Shown here one piece after another: positions 1 to 23,818 of a stretch of 32,000 nt of DNA (positions are counted from its first letter, which is position 1; every line of letters begins with the position of its first letter). Under the pieces are notes generated by a model, which worked only from the letters and a program-made list of their open reading frames with translations, did not search any database and was not told where the DNA came from. Location of the stretch: positions 1,680,001-1,712,000 of the forward strand of contig NZ_CP060715.1 of NCBI RefSeq assembly GCF_014396165.1, read 5' to 3'. Position numbers and translations under genes: made by a program. This DNA comes from Erysipelothrix inopinata (lineage in GTDB: Bacteria > Bacillota_I > Bacilli_A > Erysipelotrichales > Erysipelotrichaceae).

Positions 1-571
1 TTGCGAAATCAATCTCATCAGGGTTGATATCACTATTCATGATGGCATCCCGTTCTTTTTCTAATTTTAAGTATTGACGATATTCGTCACGGTAATCTTG
101 ATGTAATGAACCATTGCCTGCGTACCGATCTAGTAAGAGTCCGTGGTTCTTCGCATCCAATAAATATTGAGTTTCGTGCTGTGAATGAATATCTAAGATA
201 CCTTCTAAGACATCTTTTACTACAGATAAATTCACAAGTCTTTGATTTATGCGGCACACACTGCGCCCTTCTTGACTCATTTCTCGTGAGACAATCATGA
301 CATGATCTTCTTCGTATAAGCCGTATTCATGAAGCTTATCATGAATGGGATCATTATCACTCATAATAAAGATTGCTTCTACACGTGCAAAAGTGTCGTG
401 GTTTCCCACGACATGAGCGCCACTACGTTGCCCTGATATAAAATTCAGAGCATCAACGAGAAGTGATTTCCCTGCGCCCGTTTCACCAGTGAAAACATTA
501 AACTGATTAGAGAGTTCGACATCAATATTTTGAATTAATACATAATTATGTACACTGAGTTGACTTAACAT
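1..571 (-). CDS. recN: DNA repair protein RecN, N-terminal part (gene continues beyond window start)
   Basis: Reverse translation from the ATG at 571..569 gives MLSQLSVHNYVLIQNIDVELSNQFNVFTGETGAGKSLLVDAL, the typical RecN N-terminus with Walker A GETGAGKS. The frame stays open to position 1. It sits downstream of dxs as in Bacillus. Confidence 0.85.
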   Translation of the reverse strand, partial: MLSQLSVHNYVLIQNIDVELSNQFNVFTGETGAGKSLLVDALNFISGQRSGAHVVGNHDTFARVEAIFIMSDNDPIHDKLHEYGLYEEDHVMIVSREMSQEGRSVCRINQRLVNLSVVKDVLEGILDIHSQHETQYLLDAKNHGLLLDRYAGNGSLHQDYRDEYRQYLKLEKERDAIMNSDINPDEIDFA

Positions 572-587
572 AGCGGTATCCTTTCTT

Positions 588-2357
588 TTAGTTCAAAGTG
601 AAGAGTTTTAATGCATCATCAACATGAAGATGATTGCGTGTTTTGATATCCTTTGAGGATGCATTGAGATCGACATTGCTTAAATCAATTAACTTAAGAT
701 TGAGAAATTGGTGGGTTGCTGCACAATATTCTTGAATATTATGATACAACGCATTATTTGTCGACTCAGTATTATATACGACGACAAGTTTATTAAGTCT
801 GATAAGGGCTTCGATCACTACATCATCGACATGATTCATATCAATAGCATTATATAATGCTATATTTAACTCATTATTAGAAATTCGTGATTTGAATTGT
901 TGAACAGAATTGCCAAATGTTATTACAACACCATTTGAGTCATCATTTAATGGAAGTGCAAAGTATCCTTCTAATAAATTATCAGGTGCTGTTTCTACTA
1001 CAAGTTTTTCGTATCCGGAACTGTAGTTTAAAACATTGATTCCAGGTTCATTCAATAATAGTTGAAGCAATTGGTAATTTTCACCAATTGAGGAACCCGT
1101 GTACATATTAATATTATCAAAATAATTAGGGTTCATAATCCCTTGTTTATAATACTCTCCTTGTGGCGAAAGTCCTGAATCAGAAATCAAAATTGTAATG
1201 GGGAGTTTGTTTAAAACAAACTGATTTACAAGTTGCGGATAACTTTCTAAGAATCGGTATGATTTCATCATCAAAACGACCTGTTTTCCAGATTCTACCA
1301 TACCTGCTGCTATTGTAACTAAGGATTGTGTAGATCCTGATGTACTCAGATAACTCTGTGTATTTTGCAATGCAAAATCAATAAAGTGATCCTGAATTGA
1401 AATGGTATCTGCTAATACGAAGAGATTATCGCGTACTTTAGCTTCAGCTGATAGCAATTCATCAAATGCTTCTTGAGTCGTGGTGTAGTTTTCAGGACGT
1501 GTCATATCCGTTTTGAAAGCTGGGAACTCTAGTTTTCTTTCACTTCGGTGTTTGAGTCGTGTCTGGACGTGAATAATATTGGGTCCACTGAACTTTGTTG
1601 ATAATTCAAACACTTTGATAAGCTCATTCATATTTTGTCCATTAATTGGCCCATGATAGTTAATTCCGAATTGGGTAAAAATTGTAGGTTCAAGGACTGT
1701 TTCTTTAACAGCATCTCGAATCTTTGTAAGTGTCGTAAGTAACGGTCTTGAAAAGGCATTGGAATCTAAAATGGCTTTCATATCTTTTTTTAATCCAGTA
1801 TAGGTTTTACTAATACGGATTGATTTAACCAAAGAATCTACAGACGAGTAATGACGTAGTAAAGATTGTTGTTCATCAATCAAGATGATTGTAAGATCTG
1901 GTTGCAAACGACCAATTTGCATTAATGTTTCATATGTTAAGCCATAATTGAGTGCATTATCATCCATCATAATAACAGTTCTACCATTATCATTAAGTGC
2001 ATAACCCAGTGCAACACCTAGACCCTCTCCAATGTCTCCTCCTTTATATGCATCATAAGGATTAGTCGGATCAAGATAGATAGGAGTATTGGTTCTTAAT
2101 TCAAGTTCTGAAGCTCTACCAGTCAAGATTTTATGAACAAGAACTTGAGTACCACCATCAAAAATTAAATGATCTCTTTGAAAATCGTAAACATGATGAA
2201 GTGCTACTGTAGTTTCAAGAACATTTAAATTTTTAATAATTGTTTCAATATCAAAACGAGATTTCGAAGCTAAAAAACTAGCGATTTCATCACTAATTTT
2301 ATTCATTTCTTTAACTGAAAGTTCTTTTAAGTCGATTGGATTTTCGAATTGATTCAA
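588..2357 (-). CDS. 1-deoxy-D-xylulose-5-phosphate synthase (Dxs) homologue with degenerate cofactor and catalytic motifs
   Basis: 589 aa with a TTG start 8 nt after AGGAGG. It is collinear with Dxs (LETTVALHHVY, HKILTGR, GINYHGPINGQN, IIHVQT). The canonical GGH, DVGHQ, GDG...NDN, AEQH and DG.THQG blocks are all substituted. It occupies the dxs slot between ispA and recN. Confidence 0.75.
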   Translation of the reverse strand: MNQFENPIDLKELSVKEMNKISDEIASFLASKSRFDIETIIKNLNVLETTVALHHVYDFQRDHLIFDGGTQVLVHKILTGRASELELRTNTPIYLDPTNPYDAYKGGDIGEGLGVALGYALNDNGRTVIMMDDNALNYGLTYETLMQIGRLQPDLTIILIDEQQSLLRHYSSVDSLVKSIRISKTYTGLKKDMKAILDSNAFSRPLLTTLTKIRDAVKETVLEPTIFTQFGINYHGPINGQNMNELIKVFELSTKFSGPNIIHVQTRLKHRSERKLEFPAFKTDMTRPENYTTTQEAFDELLSAEAKVRDNLFVLADTISIQDHFIDFALQNTQSYLSTSGSTQSLVTIAAGMVESGKQVVLMMKSYRFLESYPQLVNQFVLNKLPITILISDSGLSPQGEYYKQGIMNPNYFDNINMYTGSSIGENYQLLQLLLNEPGINVLNYSSGYEKLVVETAPDNLLEGYFALPLNDDSNGVVITFGNSVQQFKSRISNNELNIALYNAIDMNHVDDVVIEALIRLNKLVVVYNTESTNNALYHNIQEYCAATHQFLNLKLIDLSNVDLNASSKDIKTRNHLHVDDALKLFTLN

Positions 2358-2369
2358 GATAACCGCCTC

Positions 2370-3206
2370 CTATAAATTACGGATCATCATTTCTTCAATG
2401 AGGTCTTTTAAATAAGAATCTTTTAACTCAAGTTTTAAAAGTAACGATTCAATGTCGTTAAAATATGATTGTGTAAGTTCTTGAGCTGCCTCAAGTCCTA
2501 ATAAACTCACAATGGTAACCTTTTCTCGGTCAGCATCACTTTGGACACTTTTTCCAATTTCTTCACTTGTTTTCGTTACTTCAAGGAGATCATCCTGGAA
2601 TTGGAAACAAACTCCCAATTTAAAACCTAAATCATGAGCGTCTGTTTGTTTTTCAGGTTGACCCGCAATGACCGTCGCCATTTCGAGCGCTGAGGCAAAG
2701 AGACATCCTGTCTTTAACTCATAGCAAGCTATTAACGCATCCAGATTGTGTATCTCGTTTTTAATATCATATTCTTGACCTAATATCATGCCTAATGAAC
2801 CAGCATTACGAGCAAGAATTTCCATACAAGATGCTTTGATATTTGAGTTTAAATCAGATTGTGCAAGGGTCGTAAAGGCAGCAGTAAGCAAACCGTCACC
2901 ACCTAGTATCGCCATTGCTTCACCGAATACATTATGATTTGTTGGTTTGTGACGTCTCATGTCATCATCATCCATCGCAGGAAGATCGTCATGTACTAAT
3001 GAATAAGTATGAATCATCTCGAGCGCACACCCAGGATAAAGTCCTTGATTCATATCGCCACCGAGATCGTTCAATAACGATAATAGAAGTCTGGGACGAA
3101 TACGTTTACCACCACTCATTAGTGAGTATGTCATTGAATCTTTAACAGTCGATTCAGGATAAATCTCTAAAGTTTTCAGTAAATTTGTTTCAATTAAGTT
3201 AATCAT
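2370..3206 (-). CDS. ispA: Farnesyl/geranyl diphosphate synthase (polyprenyl synthetase family)
   Basis: Both aspartate-rich motifs are present (LVHDDLPAMDDDDMRR and FQFQDDLLE). The likely start is the ATG at 3206 (MINLIETN), 5 nt after GGGGAG. That ATG overlaps the xseB stop, so the longer ORF start at 3233 is unlikely. Confidence 0.85.
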   Translation of the reverse strand: MINLIETNLLKTLEIYPESTVKDSMTYSLMSGGKRIRPRLLLSLLNDLGGDMNQGLYPGCALEMIHTYSLVHDDLPAMDDDDMRRHKPTNHNVFGEAMAILGGDGLLTAAFTTLAQSDLNSNIKASCMEILARNAGSLGMILGQEYDIKNEIHNLDALIACYELKTGCLFASALEMATVIAGQPEKQTDAHDLGFKLGVCFQFQDDLLEVTKTSEEIGKSVQSDADREKVTIVSLLGLEAAQELTQSYFNDIESLLLKLELKDSYLKDLIEEMMIRNL

Positions 3207-3408
3207 TTTTCTCCCCTTGATTTTTTTGAACAAGTTCTTTGACTGTTTCCCCGTATTCAGAAAGTTTCTCTTGGCAAATCTTCGATAATTCTAAACCTTC
3301 TTCAAAAAGTTTTATCGCATCATCAAGAGGCAAACTGTCTTTTTCAAGTTCATCAGCAATTGTTGTAAGACGAGCCATTGCTTCTTCAAAATTAAATTTA
3401 TTTTCCAT
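3199..3408 (-). CDS. xseB: Exodeoxyribonuclease VII small subunit
   Basis: A 69-aa protein beginning MENKFNFEEAMARLTTIADELE...LDDAIKLFEEG, which is XseB-like. Its ATG at 3408 overlaps the end of xseA, and the order xseA-xseB-ispA is conserved. Confidence 0.85.
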   Translation of the reverse strand: MENKFNFEEAMARLTTIADELEKDSLPLDDAIKLFEEGLELSKICQEKLSEYGETVKELVQKNQGEKND

Positions 3409-4876
3409 TTTTATAATCCTTTCGAATGACACGTGACGTGAGAATACCATCTTCAAATTCAAGTGTCAATTCATCATCGATTGAGACCTGATGAGCACTT
3501 GTGATCAGTGTGTCGTTTGATTTTGTTAGAGCATATCCTCGAGCCATTATAGCCAGTGGATTACGACTGCTCATTACCTTAAGTATATCGGTAAAACGGC
3601 TTTGTTTCAAGTTGAGAACCCTTCTCATTTGTGTGATGTTATGGGCATCTAATTGAGATATTTGTTTTTGGTTCAAGACAATTTTTTGGTCCAGTTGAGC
3701 CGTGATTCTTGAGAGTCTTGTATCTAAAATTTGATACTTATTTTTTTGATGGGTTAATTGTTGATTTAGGTAGAAGCCAAAGTCTCTTTCATGAGATACG
3801 AGCATTTGTTCTCGGCGCATAATTTTGGTATTCATAAGGTTAGTTAAATTTAATTGTGTTTCATTTAATTCCCTTTTCAAGCTATCAAAAATACGAATTT
3901 GATGAGTTATTCGACCTTGTAACATATCAAGTTGATATTGCTTGAGTTCAACAAATTTAACGGGGTCAGCGAGTTTACTTGATCCGATAATGTGTTTGAG
4001 ATTTTGAGATTGTTTAAGATATTTATTACGCACCGCAATGTAGTAACGATTTTTGTAATCACGGAAAACTTGTTCGAGTTCTTTAGCATTGGGAGTTGCA
4101 TATACGGCAGCTGCAGTCGGTGTCGCTGCACGATAGTCGGAGACGTAGTCGCTAATTGTTTCATCCGATTCATGACCAATCCCAGTCACGATAGGAATCG
4201 TACAATTATAGACAGCTTCAATAACCTCAAGTTCATTGAAAGCCCATAAATCCTCGATCGAACCTCCCCCACGTCCTAGTAGAATGGTGTCTACTCCAAG
4301 GTTTTGTGCTTTTTCAATTTGAGTCACAATACTCTTAACTGCAAACTCTCCCTGTACGTATGCTAATAAATCAATTTGTTCAGCAAGTGGCCATCTTTCT
4401 TTTAAGGTTCTGCTGATATCTGCATACGCTGCAGAGTTCTCTCCAACAATGACTGCAATGCGTTCTGGAAATTTAGGAATTGGTTTCTTATGAGCAGCAT
4501 CAAAATATCCTTTTTGAGCAAGTTCTTTCTTGAGGGCATCATATCGTATATAAAGATCACCCAGTCCATCCAAATTCATACGTGATGCGTAAATCTGAAC
4601 ACTACCATTAGCCTCGAACACTTCACATGCGCCACTAATAATTACTTTATCGCCATCTTTCGGCTTAAAAAGAACAGACTGTGCTTTACTTCGAAACATG
4701 ACACAGTTAATCCGACTTTTATCGTCCTTTAAACTAAAATAAAAATGTCCACTATGATGAGCTTTAAAGTTTGAAAGCTCACCGATCAGTGTGACATTAT
4801 TAAAAGAAGGATGATTTTGTATCACATGTTTCAAATCACGTACGAATTCCGATACGGTTTGAGCATCCTTTATCAT
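3398..4876 (-). CDS. xseA: Exodeoxyribonuclease VII large subunit
   Basis: 492 aa with an N-terminal OB fold (GELSNFKAHHSGHFYFSLKD), a catalytic core (RGGGSIEDLWAFN, GIGHESD) and a C-terminal coiled coil. It shows ATGA overlap with nusB. Confidence 0.9.
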   Translation of the reverse strand: MIKDAQTVSEFVRDLKHVIQNHPSFNNVTLIGELSNFKAHHSGHFYFSLKDDKSRINCVMFRSKAQSVLFKPKDGDKVIISGACEVFEANGSVQIYASRMNLDGLGDLYIRYDALKKELAQKGYFDAAHKKPIPKFPERIAVIVGENSAAYADISRTLKERWPLAEQIDLLAYVQGEFAVKSIVTQIEKAQNLGVDTILLGRGGGSIEDLWAFNELEVIEAVYNCTIPIVTGIGHESDETISDYVSDYRAATPTAAAVYATPNAKELEQVFRDYKNRYYIAVRNKYLKQSQNLKHIIGSSKLADPVKFVELKQYQLDMLQGRITHQIRIFDSLKRELNETQLNLTNLMNTKIMRREQMLVSHERDFGFYLNQQLTHQKNKYQILDTRLSRITAQLDQKIVLNQKQISQLDAHNITQMRRVLNLKQSRFTDILKVMSSRNPLAIMARGYALTKSNDTLITSAHQVSIDDELTLEFEDGILTSRVIRKDYKNGK

Positions 4877-5355
4877 AGAGCGTCTAAGACTCCATTAATA
4901 TATTTATATGAATCGGCGTCGCCATACTCTTTAGCAAGGCGTACTGCTTCATTGACAATAACTTCCTTAGGTTGGTATGCCAATTCAAGCTCAGCACATG
5001 CTAAAAGTAATACAGATTGTTCGATAAATCCAAGACGATCAAAGCGCCAATTTTTAAGATAATGCTGAATCGCACGACCATAAATTTCTTTACGTGATTC
5101 AACACGACTCACAATTTCATGCATTTCAGCACCTAATTTAAAACGAGGTAAAAATGTTTCAATTTTGAATTCTACTTCGTCTTCATCTTGTAAATCCAAA
5201 TATGAATCTACAGGATTGTTGTCTTCTTCAGACATAACATAACCAATTGAAGTCACAAACTTATTATCAGCGAGTATTTCTTCAACTGACATTTCACGCA
5301 TTAAGTGAATATAGATTACTGACATTGCATTTTGGCGTTCGATAACACGCGACAT
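4873..5355 (-). CDS. nusB: Transcription antitermination factor NusB (with an internal acidic insertion)
   Basis: 160 aa with NusB-like N-terminal (RQNAMSVIY) and C-terminal (LLLACAELE...VIVNEAVRLAKEYGDADSYKYINGVL) regions. It sits between asp23 and xseA as in Bacillus. Confidence 0.8.
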   Translation of the reverse strand: MSRVIERQNAMSVIYIHLMREMSVEEILADNKFVTSIGYVMSEEDNNPVDSYLDLQDEDEVEFKIETFLPRFKLGAEMHEIVSRVESRKEIYGRAIQHYLKNWRFDRLGFIEQSVLLLACAELELAYQPKEVIVNEAVRLAKEYGDADSYKYINGVLDAL

Positions 5356-12876: not shown

Positions 12877-13782
12877 TTATGCTACAGTCGCCTGCATTTG
12901 CTTTTCTCTAATGTTTGACCAATAAGCTTCAATTTTCTTGTTGGTTGGAATTGAATAACTTATAGGTGTCTCTGATCCTAATGCTTCAGTTCGAACCATC
13001 ATTGGTGTTTTGTTTTTAAATCGTTTTTGAAGTCTCTTGTTGTTATAAAAATCAATATACACATCAATTGCTTTCTTTAACTCGCTTTTAGTATTGAATT
13101 CATTAGGATAGTACATTTCTGATTTGATAGTTCCCCAGAATCCTTCCATAGGACCATTATCAATACAGTGTCCCACTCTAGACATACTTTGTATCATTCC
13201 TTGATCTTCTAGCTGTTTTCTAAATACCCTACTTGTATATTGGAATCCTCGGTCACTGTGAAATAAAGGTTTTGCCTCTGGATATCTCGTGATAGCTTTA
13301 TGATAAGTATCAAACACAAGTTGATTATTGTTACGATCACTTATGTGGTACGCCACAATACTCAAATCATAAAGATCAATAATCGCACTGAGATACAGCT
13401 TCTTACCTGAACCTTTAATCTTAAATTCTGTGACATCTGTCAACCATTTTTCATTTGGTTTAGAGGCAAAGAAGTTACGATTTAAAATATTTTCAGCTGT
13501 GATTTCAGGAGTGCTTCGTGAATACTTTTTAGACTTTTGCCGAATCACTGATTTCACACCCAGCTTCTTCATGAGTCTTCGAATTCTCTTTGGATTGTAC
13601 TGAACTCTATTAAACTCATTAATCCAATCTGTCATTCGTCGATAGCCTAAGATATGTCCAAACATTTCATCATAATCAAGAATGAGATTACAAAGCTCAT
13701 GATTCTCAATTTCATTGCTTGTTTCAACACGGTGCGTCCATTTATAATAACTACTTCTTGCGATTTTAAGTACTTTACACAT
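12877..13782 (-). CDS. IS3-family transposase OrfB (DDE integrase core), expressed as an OrfAB fusion
   Basis: The rve-type DDE core is present (WLTDVTEF, HSDRGFQYTS, DNGPMEGFWGTIKSE, YNNKRLQ). The reading frame is open upstream of the first Met back to the slippery site, in the -1 frame relative to orfA. Confidence 0.85.
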   Translation of the reverse strand: MCKVLKIARSSYYKWTHRVETSNEIENHELCNLILDYDEMFGHILGYRRMTDWINEFNRVQYNPKRIRRLMKKLGVKSVIRQKSKKYSRSTPEITAENILNRNFFASKPNEKWLTDVTEFKIKGSGKKLYLSAIIDLYDLSIVAYHISDRNNNQLVFDTYHKAITRYPEAKPLFHSDRGFQYTSRVFRKQLEDQGMIQSMSRVGHCIDNGPMEGFWGTIKSEMYYPNEFNTKSELKKAIDVYIDFYNNKRLQKRFKNKTPMMVRTEALGSETPISYSIPTNKKIEAYWSNIREKQMQATVA

Positions 13783-13835
13783 CCATTGAATACTCCAACC
13801 ATGTTTATGATGAAGTTCTTGGACTGCGAGATACT

Positions 13836-14540
13836 TTACTTCTTGTTTTGCTTTGGAGAATATCGCCGCCCTTCTATTTCCTTCACTTTTTTTAATAGAA
13901 TATTCTCACGTTCTTTCAGTTCAAGTTCTCTTTCGAGTTGTTTGATTTTACGTTCTAAACGTTCTTCATTACTGAGTTGATCTTCTTGTTTTCGTTTGCC
14001 ACGTTTATCAAGAAGCCCTTCATATCCTATCTCGTTATATTTTTGAACCCACTGGTAAACTTGAGCATAGGAAAGCCCGTAGAGTTCGGCTGTTCCCTTA
14101 TAATCGTAGTCATGTTCAATACAATGTGCGACAATTTCTTGACGTTCTTCAATCGTTGTTTTTCTACCTTTTGTCATATAGACTTCTCCTTTAGGATCGT
14201 AATCCTTTATGGTTTCAAGTCTATTATACTTGTTTATCCATCCACGCAAAACCTCATCGGAACTTATATCGTATTTGATAATAATATCTGCGAGAGAACC
14301 TAGTCCTTCAAGGTAATCTTGAATAGCAGATTCCTTAAGTTCTTTCGAATAACTTTTATTTCGAGGTTTATATGAGAATGCTTCAACACCGACGATTTGG
14401 TATTTTTTCACCCATCTACGCAATGTCCCAGGATTAATCGATAATTCTTGGGATATTTCCATTGCACCTTTTATGCCGTTCAAATATTCTTTAACTACTT
14501 GTTCTTTTATTTCCGCTGGATATTTATTCTTTCTACCCAT
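13836..14540 (-). CDS. IS3-family transposase OrfA (two HTH domains plus leucine-zipper-like C-terminus)
   Basis: Two HTH segments are present (ISQELSINPGTLRRWVKKY and TAELYGLSYAQVYQWVQKY). A coiled-coil follows (LERKIKQLERELELKERENILLKK), as is typical of IS3/IS150-group OrfA. Confidence 0.85.
   Translation of the reverse strand: MGRKNKYPAEIKEQVVKEYLNGIKGAMEISQELSINPGTLRRWVKKYQIVGVEAFSYKPRNKSYSKELKESAIQDYLEGLGSLADIIIKYDISSDEVLRGWINKYNRLETIKDYDPKGEVYMTKGRKTTIEERQEIVAHCIEHDYDYKGTAELYGLSYAQVYQWVQKYNEIGYEGLLDKRGKRKQEDQLSNEERLERKIKQLERELELKERENILLKKVKEIEGRRYSPKQNKK
13887..13893 (-). other. Programmed -1 ribosomal frameshift site A AAA AAA (followed by G)
   Basis: The minus-strand sequence TTA AAA AAA GTG is in the orfA zero frame. 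Slipping -1 gives KKSEGNRRAAIFSKAKQEVKYLAVQELHHKHGWSIQWMCKVL, which runs into OrfB without a stop. Confidence 0.7.
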
Positions 14541-21754: not shown

Positions 21755-23818
21755 TTAGAAGTCAATGATGACAGGAATATACATGCAAGTATACGTTACA
21801 TATACAGTCTTAGAATTTTCATCATAAGTAATAATTGGAGTCTCAGCCAAACTTGCTTTGAAATCAACAAATCCACCATATTCGGTTGAGCCATCGCCTA
21901 TGTACCCATTTTGACTTTGAGAGTAAGATCCAAACGATTCTTTTTCGACCCCATTCTCATCTAAATAGAACGTATTCAATTGGACTTCCTTAGGTAAATC
22001 ATTAATATTGAATTCCCAGTTAGATAACGTTACTGATTCCAGTTCTTCTCCGTACTTAACCACTACTGTGCGATTTGTGATGGGTTCATTGAATTTCAAA
22101 TAGTAATTTGAAAAATCAATAACCTCCGCTTGGTAACGTGATAGATCAGGGACTGCTATAAAGTCCTTAGTTGGGTAACCGTTTTGAACATGTTTAAATT
22201 TCACAACAGTTGTCATATATTTAACGGCCTTATCATAAACCACTGTAACTTCTTGATTTGATGCAGTGAATGTTCCTTCAAAGTTCCCTTGAAATTCTTT
22301 GAATTGATAACCATCTATAATTGGCGCTTCAACTTTATAAGAACTCCCTGTCACCCCAGTAAGAGTTACAGGATCTTTGATTTGATTGCCTAGCATATCG
22401 TGATAATTAACTAAAACAGTACCTTCAGTTAGAAGTTTGTTATATGTAATCGTAATGATTTGATCTTCAACTAAGAATGTATTGTTGCCAGGATTAGAAA
22501 TTTCTTTAAATTTATAGCCATCAATTTCGGGGATATCTACTTCGAAACCAGTACCTACTTCCCCAGACAAAACATTATTTGGTTTGAGCGGTGTTCCAGT
22601 TTCATCACGATATTCAATCGTTACCTTACCTATGGAAGAAACAATTTTTCTATATTGAACGATGACTTCTTGTTGCTGTTCAGTAAAGAGTCCTATGTTA
22701 TTGCCGACAAACTTAACAAACTCATACCCGTCAATCATATCAATTGAAACAGTATAAGTACTGCCTATACTACCAGTCATAATTTTAGTAGGTCTGATTG
22801 TATTTCCATCAATGTCTTGGTAATTAACAGTCAAGTTTCCATTCTTTATTACTTTATCATATACAAGAGTTATCACTTGATGTTCTTTAGTGAATAAGGC
22901 ATTACCTAGATTTTCAATATGATTGAATGTGTAGTTTGATATTTTAGGAATATCAACCTTAAATACAGATCCAATGCCACCTGTTAGCTTCATCTCAGGT
23001 TTGATAGCATTTCCTAAGGTATCGTGATAACGAAGTGTAACGAATCCAACTTTCGAATCGTTTTTTCGATAAATTGCAGTTACAGTTTGTTTTTCGATTG
23101 TGAAGCGCCCTTCAGAGTTACCTCTAAATTCTATAAATTGATATCCTTCGAGATCAACCACCTCAATTTTAAACGGTTTATTAACAACTCCTTTAACTTG
23201 AGTTTTGTTTGCGAGTACATTGCCAGTTTCATCTTGATAATGGACTTCAACTATGCCTTCTTTGTCTTCCACAACTTCATCAGGATTATCCTTTGCTGCA
23301 ACTATATATCCTAGATATTTATAACCCTGAATATGTTCTGGTTTTGGAGTAAAGGCTTCACCCTTAGTGACTGTAAGCGTAGTATCTTGAATTAGCGTTG
23401 AAGCATCAGCATAAATGTTCATAGCACCAATTGCGCCTACAGCAATAATGGTTCCAAGAATAACCAATCCAAACAAATTACCTTTTCCTGTTTTTTTGAA
23501 GAGTAACATTAAACCAATTGCGAGAAGTGCGACTCCTATAAATATAAAGGGAGATACAGAATTGAGTCCTGTATTAGGAAGCTCATTACCTCCAGTAATT
23601 TTCGAATAGATCATCCGAATATTGTAAACGTCCTGAGTAACACTAATCTCAGAAGAATCTTTAATTATAGAAGCTTTCTCAGAATCTGATAAATTATCGT
23701 AATTTATATGTGATACTGTTATTTCAGATTTTTTCGTATCACTCAACGCAAATGTTTGAGTGGCACCCATCAGCGACATTACCAAGACCATACACAATAA
23801 TCCAATCTTCTTTCTCAT
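21755..23818 (-). CDS. Secreted MucBP-repeat surface/adhesin-like protein with an internal LPNTG sorting-signal-like segment
   Basis: It has a signal peptide (MRKKIGLLCMVLVMSLMGATQTFA). An LPNTG + hydrophobic stretch + KKTGKG occupies residues 80-113, followed by a second hydrophobic segment. Five MucBP-like modules of about 69 aa follow, then a 153-aa C-terminal region without an anchor motif. Confidence 0.8.
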   Translation of the reverse strand: MRKKIGLLCMVLVMSLMGATQTFALSDTKKSEITVSHINYDNLSDSEKASIIKDSSEISVTQDVYNIRMIYSKITGGNELPNTGLNSVSPFIFIGVALLAIGLMLLFKKTGKGNLFGLVILGTIIAVGAIGAMNIYADASTLIQDTTLTVTKGEAFTPKPEHIQGYKYLGYIVAAKDNPDEVVEDKEGIVEVHYQDETGNVLANKTQVKGVVNKPFKIEVVDLEGYQFIEFRGNSEGRFTIEKQTVTAIYRKNDSKVGFVTLRYHDTLGNAIKPEMKLTGGIGSVFKVDIPKISNYTFNHIENLGNALFTKEHQVITLVYDKVIKNGNLTVNYQDIDGNTIRPTKIMTGSIGSTYTVSIDMIDGYEFVKFVGNNIGLFTEQQQEVIVQYRKIVSSIGKVTIEYRDETGTPLKPNNVLSGEVGTGFEVDIPEIDGYKFKEISNPGNNTFLVEDQIITITYNKLLTEGTVLVNYHDMLGNQIKDPVTLTGVTGSSYKVEAPIIDGYQFKEFQGNFEGTFTASNQEVTVVYDKAVKYMTTVVKFKHVQNGYPTKDFIAVPDLSRYQAEVIDFSNYYLKFNEPITNRTVVVKYGEELESVTLSNWEFNINDLPKEVQLNTFYLDENGVEKESFGSYSQSQNGYIGDGSTEYGGFVDFKASLAETPIITYDENSKTVYVTYTCMYIPVIIDF
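22226..23260 (-). repeat. Five tandem divergent MucBP-like coding repeats (about 207 bp each)
   Basis: The repeated protein pattern is G.V.V.Y.D..GN.I......TG..GS.Y.V....I.GY.F..F.GN..G.F......V.V.Y.K. The modules begin EGIVEVHYQDETGN, VGFVTLRYHDTLGN, NGNLTVNYQDIDGN, IGKVTIEYRDETGT and EGTVLVNYHDMLGN. Confidence 0.8.

Follow-up and report, generated by a model that had tools for sequence, protein, structure and literature searches.

A Dxs-like protein that lacks nearly all cofactor- and substrate-binding residues in the nusB-recN gene block of Erysipelothrix

The dxs-like gene and its surroundings

Dxs, the synthase that makes DXP (1-deoxy-D-xylulose 5-phosphate) and depends on thiamine diphosphate (ThDP), ranks among the leading targets for antibacterials, and in genome-scale models its presence is routinely taken as proof of a working methylerythritol phosphate (MEP) pathway. 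We analyzed a 32,000-nucleotide stretch of the Erysipelothrix inopinata chromosome (contig NZ_CP060715.1, positions 1,680,001 to 1,712,000; hereafter the window) in which a dxs-like gene occupies the slot of dxs on the minus strand. The genes and signals at this locus are listed below in window coordinates.

588..2357, minus strand: dxs-like open reading frame (ORF), 589 amino acids (aa), TTG start; product with a Dxs fold but without the ThDP, Mg and substrate residues
2366..2371, minus strand: ribosome-binding site (RBS) AGGAGG, 8 nt 5' of the dxs-like TTG and overlapping the ispA stop codon TAG; read directly from the sequence
2370..3233, minus strand: ispA (farnesyl-diphosphate synthase), directly upstream of the dxs-like gene, its stop codon overlapping the dxs-like RBS
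3199..4876, minus strand: xseB and xseA (exonuclease VII small and large subunits), overlapping each other and also ispA
4873..5355, minus strand: nusB, the first gene of a block without terminators
1..571, minus strand: 5' part of recN, starting 16 nt past the dxs-like stop; an SMC_N protein, seen in locus L003

Read along the minus strand, the gene order is nusB-xseA-xseB-ispA-dxs-like-recN, and the ends of adjacent genes either overlap or lie 10-16 nt apart. No terminator-like sites were found on this strand between nusB and recN; the sole minus-strand terminator-like site of the stretch, at 5395-5376, lies upstream of nusB. The original prediction, made by reading the sequence of the window, had placed a full-length Dxs homologue with a good RBS in a conserved xseA-xseB-ispA-dxs-recN position, and the analysis bore out all three points. 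The same position is occupied across the Erysipelothrix loci examined below.

The protein is recognizably derived from Dxs. Searching the PDB with phmmer returned only Dxs proteins as its closest relatives of solved structure, the top match being E. coli Dxs (2o1s, 1e-35), which is of similar length. An AlphaFold2 (AF2) model built from an 88-sequence alignment had a predicted local distance difference test (pLDDT) score of 87.3 and a predicted template-modelling (TM) score of 0.82, and pLDDT fell below 50 only at residues 165-190 and 213-221. When this model was compared with the PDB using Foldseek, the top 50 hits were all Dxs/DXPS or DXPS-like, with query-normalized TM-scores of 0.67-0.78 (best ~0.77) at sequence identities of only 17-20%. 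Both methods thus give the three-domain transketolase-like fold in the domain order of Dxs.

Family models were less accommodating. Pfam recognized DXP_synthase_N alone (1e-48) and neither Transket_pyr nor Transketolase_C, and the scores against the NCBIfam dxs models TIGR00204 (177.3 bits, equivalog cutoff 465.95) and NF003933 (176.9 bits, cutoff 395) remained below threshold. No match to another enzyme family was obtained in Pfam or NCBIfam, and we found no curated model in either database that is specific to the Erysipelothrix proteins. A profile built from this clade gave 561-889 bits for its members, whereas the highest-scoring true Dxs reached 358 bits; the dxs-like proteins are therefore a discrete family.

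Cofactor and substrate residues

To compare the protein with Dxs residue by residue, we numbered positions by the phmmer alignment to E. coli Dxs and also read the substitutions from a MAFFT alignment of 258 sequences. The phmmer alignment to the PDB, a MAFFT alignment with 28 sequences and the 258-sequence MAFFT alignment agree on the substitutions. The motifs concerned are as follows.

2238..2261, minus strand: SRFDIETI (aa 33-40), replacing KTGGHLxS; H49 becomes T39
2145..2159, minus strand: DGGTQ (aa 67-71), replacing DVGHQ; H80 becomes T70
2022..2039, minus strand: GDIGEG (aa 107-112), replacing GHSSTS, the G121-H-S loop that contacts ThDP in Dxs
1953..1964, minus strand: DDNA (aa 132-135), replacing GDGA; both glycines are lost and the Mg-ligand Asp is kept as D133
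1326..1337, minus strand: GSTQ (aa 341-344), replacing (I)AEQH; E370 becomes T343 and I368 becomes G341
1140..1184, minus strand: SDSGLSPQGEYYKQG (aa 392-406), replacing DRAGxVGxDGxTHxG; R420, D427 and H431 are lost

IDEQ (aa 160-163) stands where Dxs has NDNE. In terms of individual E. coli residues, S52 is replaced by K42, G151-D152-G153 by D132-D133-N134, N179-D180-N181 by I160-D161-E162, M183 by Q164, K284 by L268, Y392 by K365, R398 by E371, R420 by D393, D427 by G400 and H431 by K404, and H299 is lost (R or deleted). Of the residues with which true Dxs binds ThDP, the window protein therefore lacks I368, E370, K284, N181, H80, both glycines of GDG and the GHS loop; of those that bind and turn over pyruvate and glyceraldehyde 3-phosphate it lacks H49, H299, Y392, R398, R420, D427 and H431. 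Each motif replacement that had been listed from the sequence (GGH, DVGHQ, GHSSTS, GDGA...NDNE, AEQH and the DRAG block) is present in the alignments, which confirm that the catalytic His and Glu residues and the GDG-N motif are gone. The broader statement that every motif is substituted stands for nearly all of them but goes too far at the metal site, where the Mg-ligand Asp D152 survives as D133 and the Asn ligand N181 has become a conserved glutamate, E162.

To place these losses in context we scored 15 key sites, comprising the ThDP, Mg and substrate residues of Dxs, across the family. The clade was represented by 45 sequences (40 clusters at 90% identity and five further representatives at 50% identity) spanning 31-100% identity. 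All 45 have 12-15 of the 15 sites replaced, as opposed to 0-2 in 195 of the 212 Dxs-family representatives outside the clade, and this excludes a chance pattern. Over 257 sequences the distribution is bimodal, with 0-2 losses in 195 and 6-15 in the remaining 62 (the 45 clade members and 17 others). Of the ThDP/Mg motif GDG-x(25-30)-N(DN), no clade representative retains either glycine or the Asn ligand; the Asp alone survives, in 43 of the 45, and N181 has become Glu in 44. H49 is replaced by Thr in 36/45 and H299 by Arg in 37/45. Elsewhere the former active site has mostly become variable: the position of the activating Glu, E370, is T, V, P, I or Y, that of R398 is D, E, Q, Y or G, and that of H431 is N, K, H or D. 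H49, H299, H431, D427, R398, R420 and Y392 are all changed in the window protein, and most or all of the clade has likewise lost them; a minority keeps H431 (9/45), D427 (7/45) or R398 (at most 2/45). Since most former active-site positions now vary, with exceptions in domain I, we read the pattern as relaxation rather than retuning.

The catalytic and cofactor residues expected to be missing from a pseudoenzyme are thus missing here. Judged from its residues, the protein should be unable to bind ThDP in the canonical way, and the combined loss of ThDP-binding and pyruvate/glyceraldehyde 3-phosphate residues would preclude activity as a ThDP-dependent DXP synthase. One might object that a bona fide synthase could have been misread, its catalytic residues having migrated or been misaligned, given that fold and locus are unchanged and ispA is adjacent. 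We consider this very improbable. Three independent alignments concur on the substitutions, and what has disappeared includes general requirements of ThDP enzymes, namely the GDG glycines, the Ile of the V conformation and the activating Glu. The score also lies far under both equivalog cutoffs, and in E. rhusiopathiae the orthologue now carries no more than the NCBI name 'DXP synthase N-terminal domain-containing protein'.

Selection, distribution and shifted constraint

A gene that has lost its catalytic motifs might simply be decaying: a dxs heading for loss after the MEP pathway ceased to be needed, its reading frame intact merely by chance. The disappearance of all catalytic motifs, the variability of many former active-site positions and the failure of the Pfam models of domains II and III to detect the protein would suit such a relic. 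A scan of species-representative genomes yielded 14 loci with a dxs-like gene, all from genomes named Erysipelothrix (E. anatis, E. aquatica, E. tonsillarum, E. urinaevulpis, HDW6A and metagenome-assembled genomes (MAGs)). The ORF is uninterrupted in 14/14, two of which are cut by contig ends, and the order nusB-xseA-xseB-ispA-X-recN-dinB, where X is the dxs-like gene, holds in every locus that reaches the flanking genes. The orthologue of E. rhusiopathiae is 51% identical and occurs on hundreds of contigs, including that of strain Fujisawa (BAK31940.1).

Ratios of non-synonymous to synonymous substitution (dN/dS) were calculated by the Nei-Gojobori method for three close pairs. The window strain and a MAG 97% identical to it gave 0.032 (23.5 non-synonymous and 146.5 synonymous differences), E. 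anatis and E. aquatica gave 0.039, and two E. aquatica strains gave 0.066. Neighboring genes compared at the same loci, among them xseA, ispA, recN and dinB, gave 0.012-0.093. Loci L003 and L004, which match the window exactly, were uninformative for this purpose, and comparisons between species were set aside as saturated at 40-55% amino-acid identity (dS >1.7 or undefined). Purifying selection on the dxs-like gene is as strong as on its housekeeping neighbors.

These data effectively refute decay. The ratios of 0.03-0.07 come from three independent pairs and equal those of recN, xseA and ispA; the ORF is unbroken at every locus, with about 45 representatives spanning 31-100% identity; its divergence between species keeps step with that of xseA and recN; and the clade has invariant residues of its own. 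Close relatives combine strong purifying selection with an absence of frameshifts, which refutes plain decay; the original prediction, too, had argued against it. Both an intact gene and purifying selection in relatives, as expected of a maintained pseudoenzyme, are therefore found, and because strong selection keeps the gene despite the loss of the Dxs residues, its product must now do something else.

The distribution of constraint along the protein gives an indication of where that function may lie. The relevant segment is:

1473..1880, minus strand: most conserved stretch of the clade (aa 160-295), consensus IDEQxSLLRHY ... RISKTYTxLKKDxK ... KETVxEPTIFxQFG ... GPIxGQN ... FPxFKxD, matching the mobile lid and spoon/fork region of Dxs

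Mean pairwise identity over aa 136-295 is 0.59 in the clade as compared with 0.50 in true Dxs, whereas over domain II (aa 296-470) it is 0.29 as compared with 0.57. The pattern of conservation is thus reversed: constraint falls on the lid and fork, and domain II, which contributes the pyrimidine- and substrate-side half of the active site, is relaxed and forms the least conserved part of the clade protein. The conserved stretch reads DEQxSLLRHY-S-D--IKS-RISKxY---K-D-K--L-SN--S-P----L---RD--K--V-EPTIF-QFG--Y-GPI-GQN ... FP-FK-D, of which DEQxSLLRHY is at least 90% conserved. In crystal structures of Dxs the corresponding segment is either disordered or proteolysed, and the mobile lid/fork, poorly understood as it is, is dispensable for catalysis in truncated crystal constructs. 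In the AF2 model, the low-confidence parts (aa 165-190 and 213-221) lie within this most conserved stretch of the clade.

In true Dxs the spoon/fork loop is variable in sequence and ordered only in the closed state, in which it fills the active-site cleft and positions H299; closure needs an aromatic cluster (E. coli Y288, F298 and F304) (bioRxiv 10.1101/2025.10.24.684457). The window protein shares with true Dxs the 'Y-GP-xG' core and the fork aromatics: F298 and F304 correspond to F278, shared by at least 90% of the clade, and F281, and they stand beside the invariant P279 and K282; H299 itself is gone. The lid motif R-x-S-[KR]-x-Y...K-x-D-x-K occurs also in a neighboring true Dxs (P0125) and in other degenerate lineages, and it must therefore predate the loss of catalysis. 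A stretch that is both strongly conserved and predicted to be mobile would suit a binding segment that becomes ordered on a partner. Charge and isoelectric point were considered as hints of nucleic-acid binding, and the idea was dropped: a basic lid is common to true and dead Dxs, and the overall isoelectric point is unremarkable.

The same stretch can be read as part of a new enzyme. The remodelled pocket of the pyrophosphate-binding domain could hold a metal on D133, D161 and E162, with R168, H169 and Y170 binding substrate or acting in catalysis, and no ThDP would be involved. Retention of D152 in 43/45 sequences, the near-uniform change of N181 to Glu and the conservation of DEQxSLLRHY are compatible with this idea; the very low dN/dS would suit an enzyme, and DXPS-like ThDP enzymes with other reactions are known (e.g. 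PDB 9kpq). We nevertheless regard it as unlikely. Domain II, the opposite half of the cleft, shows the weakest conservation in the protein, no other enzyme family was matched in Pfam or NCBIfam, and the conserved stretch consists mostly of helices predicted to be mobile (pLDDT <50) rather than of a pre-formed pocket.

Loss of the key sites is not confined to Erysipelothrix. Outside the clade, 17 further representatives of 50%-identity clusters are Dxs-like with 6-14 of the 15 sites lost. Three of them, P0221 (locus L025, 4591-6381, from a Holdemanella MAG), P0148 (L021, 3231-4973) and P0127 (L022, 8001-9842), occupy the same nusB-xseA-xseB-ispA-X-(tlyA)-recN slot. These other degenerate Dxs of the Erysipelotrichaceae and relatives resemble the clade in slot, in extent of loss and in keeping the lid motif R-x-S-K/R-x-Y...K-x-D-x-K; they differ in sitting on separate long branches, at least some of the losses apparently being independent, and in that most still match Pfam Transket_pyr or Transketolase_C. 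True-Dxs relatives (Faecalicoccus and 'Firmicutes bacterium GWE2_51_13') show the same gene order with dxs intact.

A neighbor-joining tree recovered the Erysipelothrix clade as monophyletic. Three degenerate proteins nest inside true-Dxs clades, implying that degenerate Dxs arose more than once; the branches are long and star-like, and the tree accordingly leaves a common origin of most degenerate lineages unsettled. A gene for a TlyA-like S4/FtsJ methyltransferase lies between dxs and recN in L021, L023, L024 and L025; it precedes recN downstream of P0221 and P0148, whereas P0127 is followed directly by recN. This gene is absent from all Erysipelothrix loci, where recN comes directly next (in the window across the gap at 572-587).

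The recurrence of degenerate copies in the same slot of other Erysipelotrichaceae suggests a general route rather than an oddity. It is conceivable, though we hold this only tentatively, that Dxs in the Erysipelotrichaceae, and perhaps in the wider Firmicutes, has a second, non-catalytic function seated in the lid/fork, and that several lineages, including Erysipelothrix, Holdemanella and others, lost catalysis independently or progressively once the MEP pathway was dispensable and kept the protein. If this were true, such natural 'separation-of-function' alleles would reveal the purpose of the Dxs lid.

A proposed role, its precedents and neighboring features

We propose that the dxs of Erysipelothrix, vertically inherited and still in its ancestral operon, is probably a pseudoenzyme with a non-catalytic role, and put the probability of this reading at roughly 0.6. 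That the protein is a pseudoenzyme or has been repurposed, maintained but no longer a DXP synthase, was the central claim of the original prediction, and the alignments and the selection data support it. Without the cofactor, the conserved lid and fork and a remodelled pocket on the diphosphate side (D133, D161, E162, Q163, S165, R168, H169 and Y170) would together form a functional surface. The protein may then act by binding, as a scaffold or as a sensor, perhaps with its cleft permanently plugged, and it would be co-translated with IspA, exonuclease VII and RecN from one tightly packed operon.

For a partner or ligand, the most economical candidates would be IspA itself or something held at the remnant Mg site, either an isoprenoid diphosphate or a metal. 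Isopentenyl diphosphate (IPP) and dimethylallyl diphosphate (DMAPP) bind Dxs; given this binding and the presumed co-translation with IspA, a link to isoprenoid regulation is, speculatively, the most economical guess.

Three points weigh against this proposal. The operon context is inherited and says little about a new role. D133, the conserved E162 and R168-H169-Y170 might just as well point to a new site for catalysis or for a ligand. Mevalonate (MVA)-using Firmicutes such as Staphylococcus are not known to have a dxs at this locus, so there is no need for Dxs to have a second function in every lineage.

The closest precedent for a dead, conserved Dxs appears to come from plants. The class-3 proteins SlDXS3 and AtDXS3 have no thiamine pyrophosphate (TPP) site, show no activity in complementation and are conserved (PMC10675008). 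According to that source, which cites de Luna-Valdez 2021, they have no known function, and their role is presumed to lie outside the synthesis of isoprenoid precursors. The Erysipelothrix protein is likewise derived from Dxs, evolutionarily conserved and without a predicted TPP site. However, the origins are independent, and the plant protein is a plastid paralogue alongside active DXS1 and DXS2, whereas the Erysipelothrix protein is the syntenic orthologue itself, with no active copy named Erysipelothrix in the homologue searches. Being bacterial and syntenic with bacterial dxs, it is best treated as an analogue, and not a member, of plant class-3 DXS. Our literature search found no report of a dead bacterial Dxs; as the nearest precedent is the independent, paralogous plant protein, we take a bacterial, orthologous dead Dxs to be new.

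The case would be a clean one for bacteria, in that an orthologue, not a spare paralogue, has been made a pseudoenzyme in situ under strong selection. The residues that are kept point to an unrecognized role of the least understood part of Dxs, the lid/fork together with a remnant acidic metal site. In practical terms, the genus counts E. rhusiopathiae, a pathogen of pigs and humans, among its species, and a Dxs that is dead throughout the genus but keeps the label 'DXP synthase' in some records would lead both pathway reconstruction and lists of drug targets astray.

Whether a true Dxs exists elsewhere in the genus was approached through homologue searches. A query with P0125, the nearest true Dxs, returned only Firmicutes matches of at least 61% identity, none named Erysipelothrix, a weak negative for a second dxs. 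Neither the homologue searches nor the clade-profile search turned up a true Dxs named Erysipelothrix, which lends weak support to its absence. The region upstream of polC in the window strain is rnc/recG/fakA, not uppS-cdsA-dxr, and is uninformative on dxr. Motifs of MVA or MEP enzymes were not found in the compared loci, as expected for ~300 kb, and the literature search gave nothing usable on the mevalonate versus MEP gene content of Erysipelothrix. IspA remains intact under constraint (dN/dS 0.056) and the strain has murG, so a source of IPP must exist.

IspA had been described as keeping both DDxxD motifs, which proved incorrect for the second: it is DDLLE in the window protein and DD[IL]LE in every Erysipelothrix locus and in L021 (L001, L005, L008-L017, L020 and L021), as compared with DDILD or DDLFD in the relatives L022-L025. 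The window IspA passes the NCBIfam model FPPsyn narrowly, at 282 against a cutoff of 275. Covariation between IspA and the death of Dxs was considered and rejected, as the DDxxE form is shared by Erysipelothrix and L021, whereas Holdemanella lacks it even though its Dxs is dead too, leaving no clean link.

The first gene of the block, nusB (4873-5355, minus strand), encodes 160 aa, of which only residues 76-159 match Pfam NusB; an acidic extra segment of ~35 aa lies ahead of this match. NusB of relatives is 125-134 aa long, and gene callers are split on the start of the window gene (160 or 142 aa).

The other content of the window is that of an ordinary chromosome and includes polC, rimP-nusA-infB-rbfA, truB-ribF, rsmF, an ATP-binding cassette (ABC) transporter and an IS3-type element. 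Two further features were seen there:

12877-14540, minus strand: IS3-type insertion sequence between amino-acid ABC transporter genes and rbfA, with ORFs for a helix-turn-helix transposase (13836-14540) and an rve integrase core (12877-13782)
21755-23818, minus strand: 687-aa protein with five MucBP repeats, likely a surface adhesin, adjoining the S component of an energy-coupling factor (ECF) transporter and a nucleoside hydrolase

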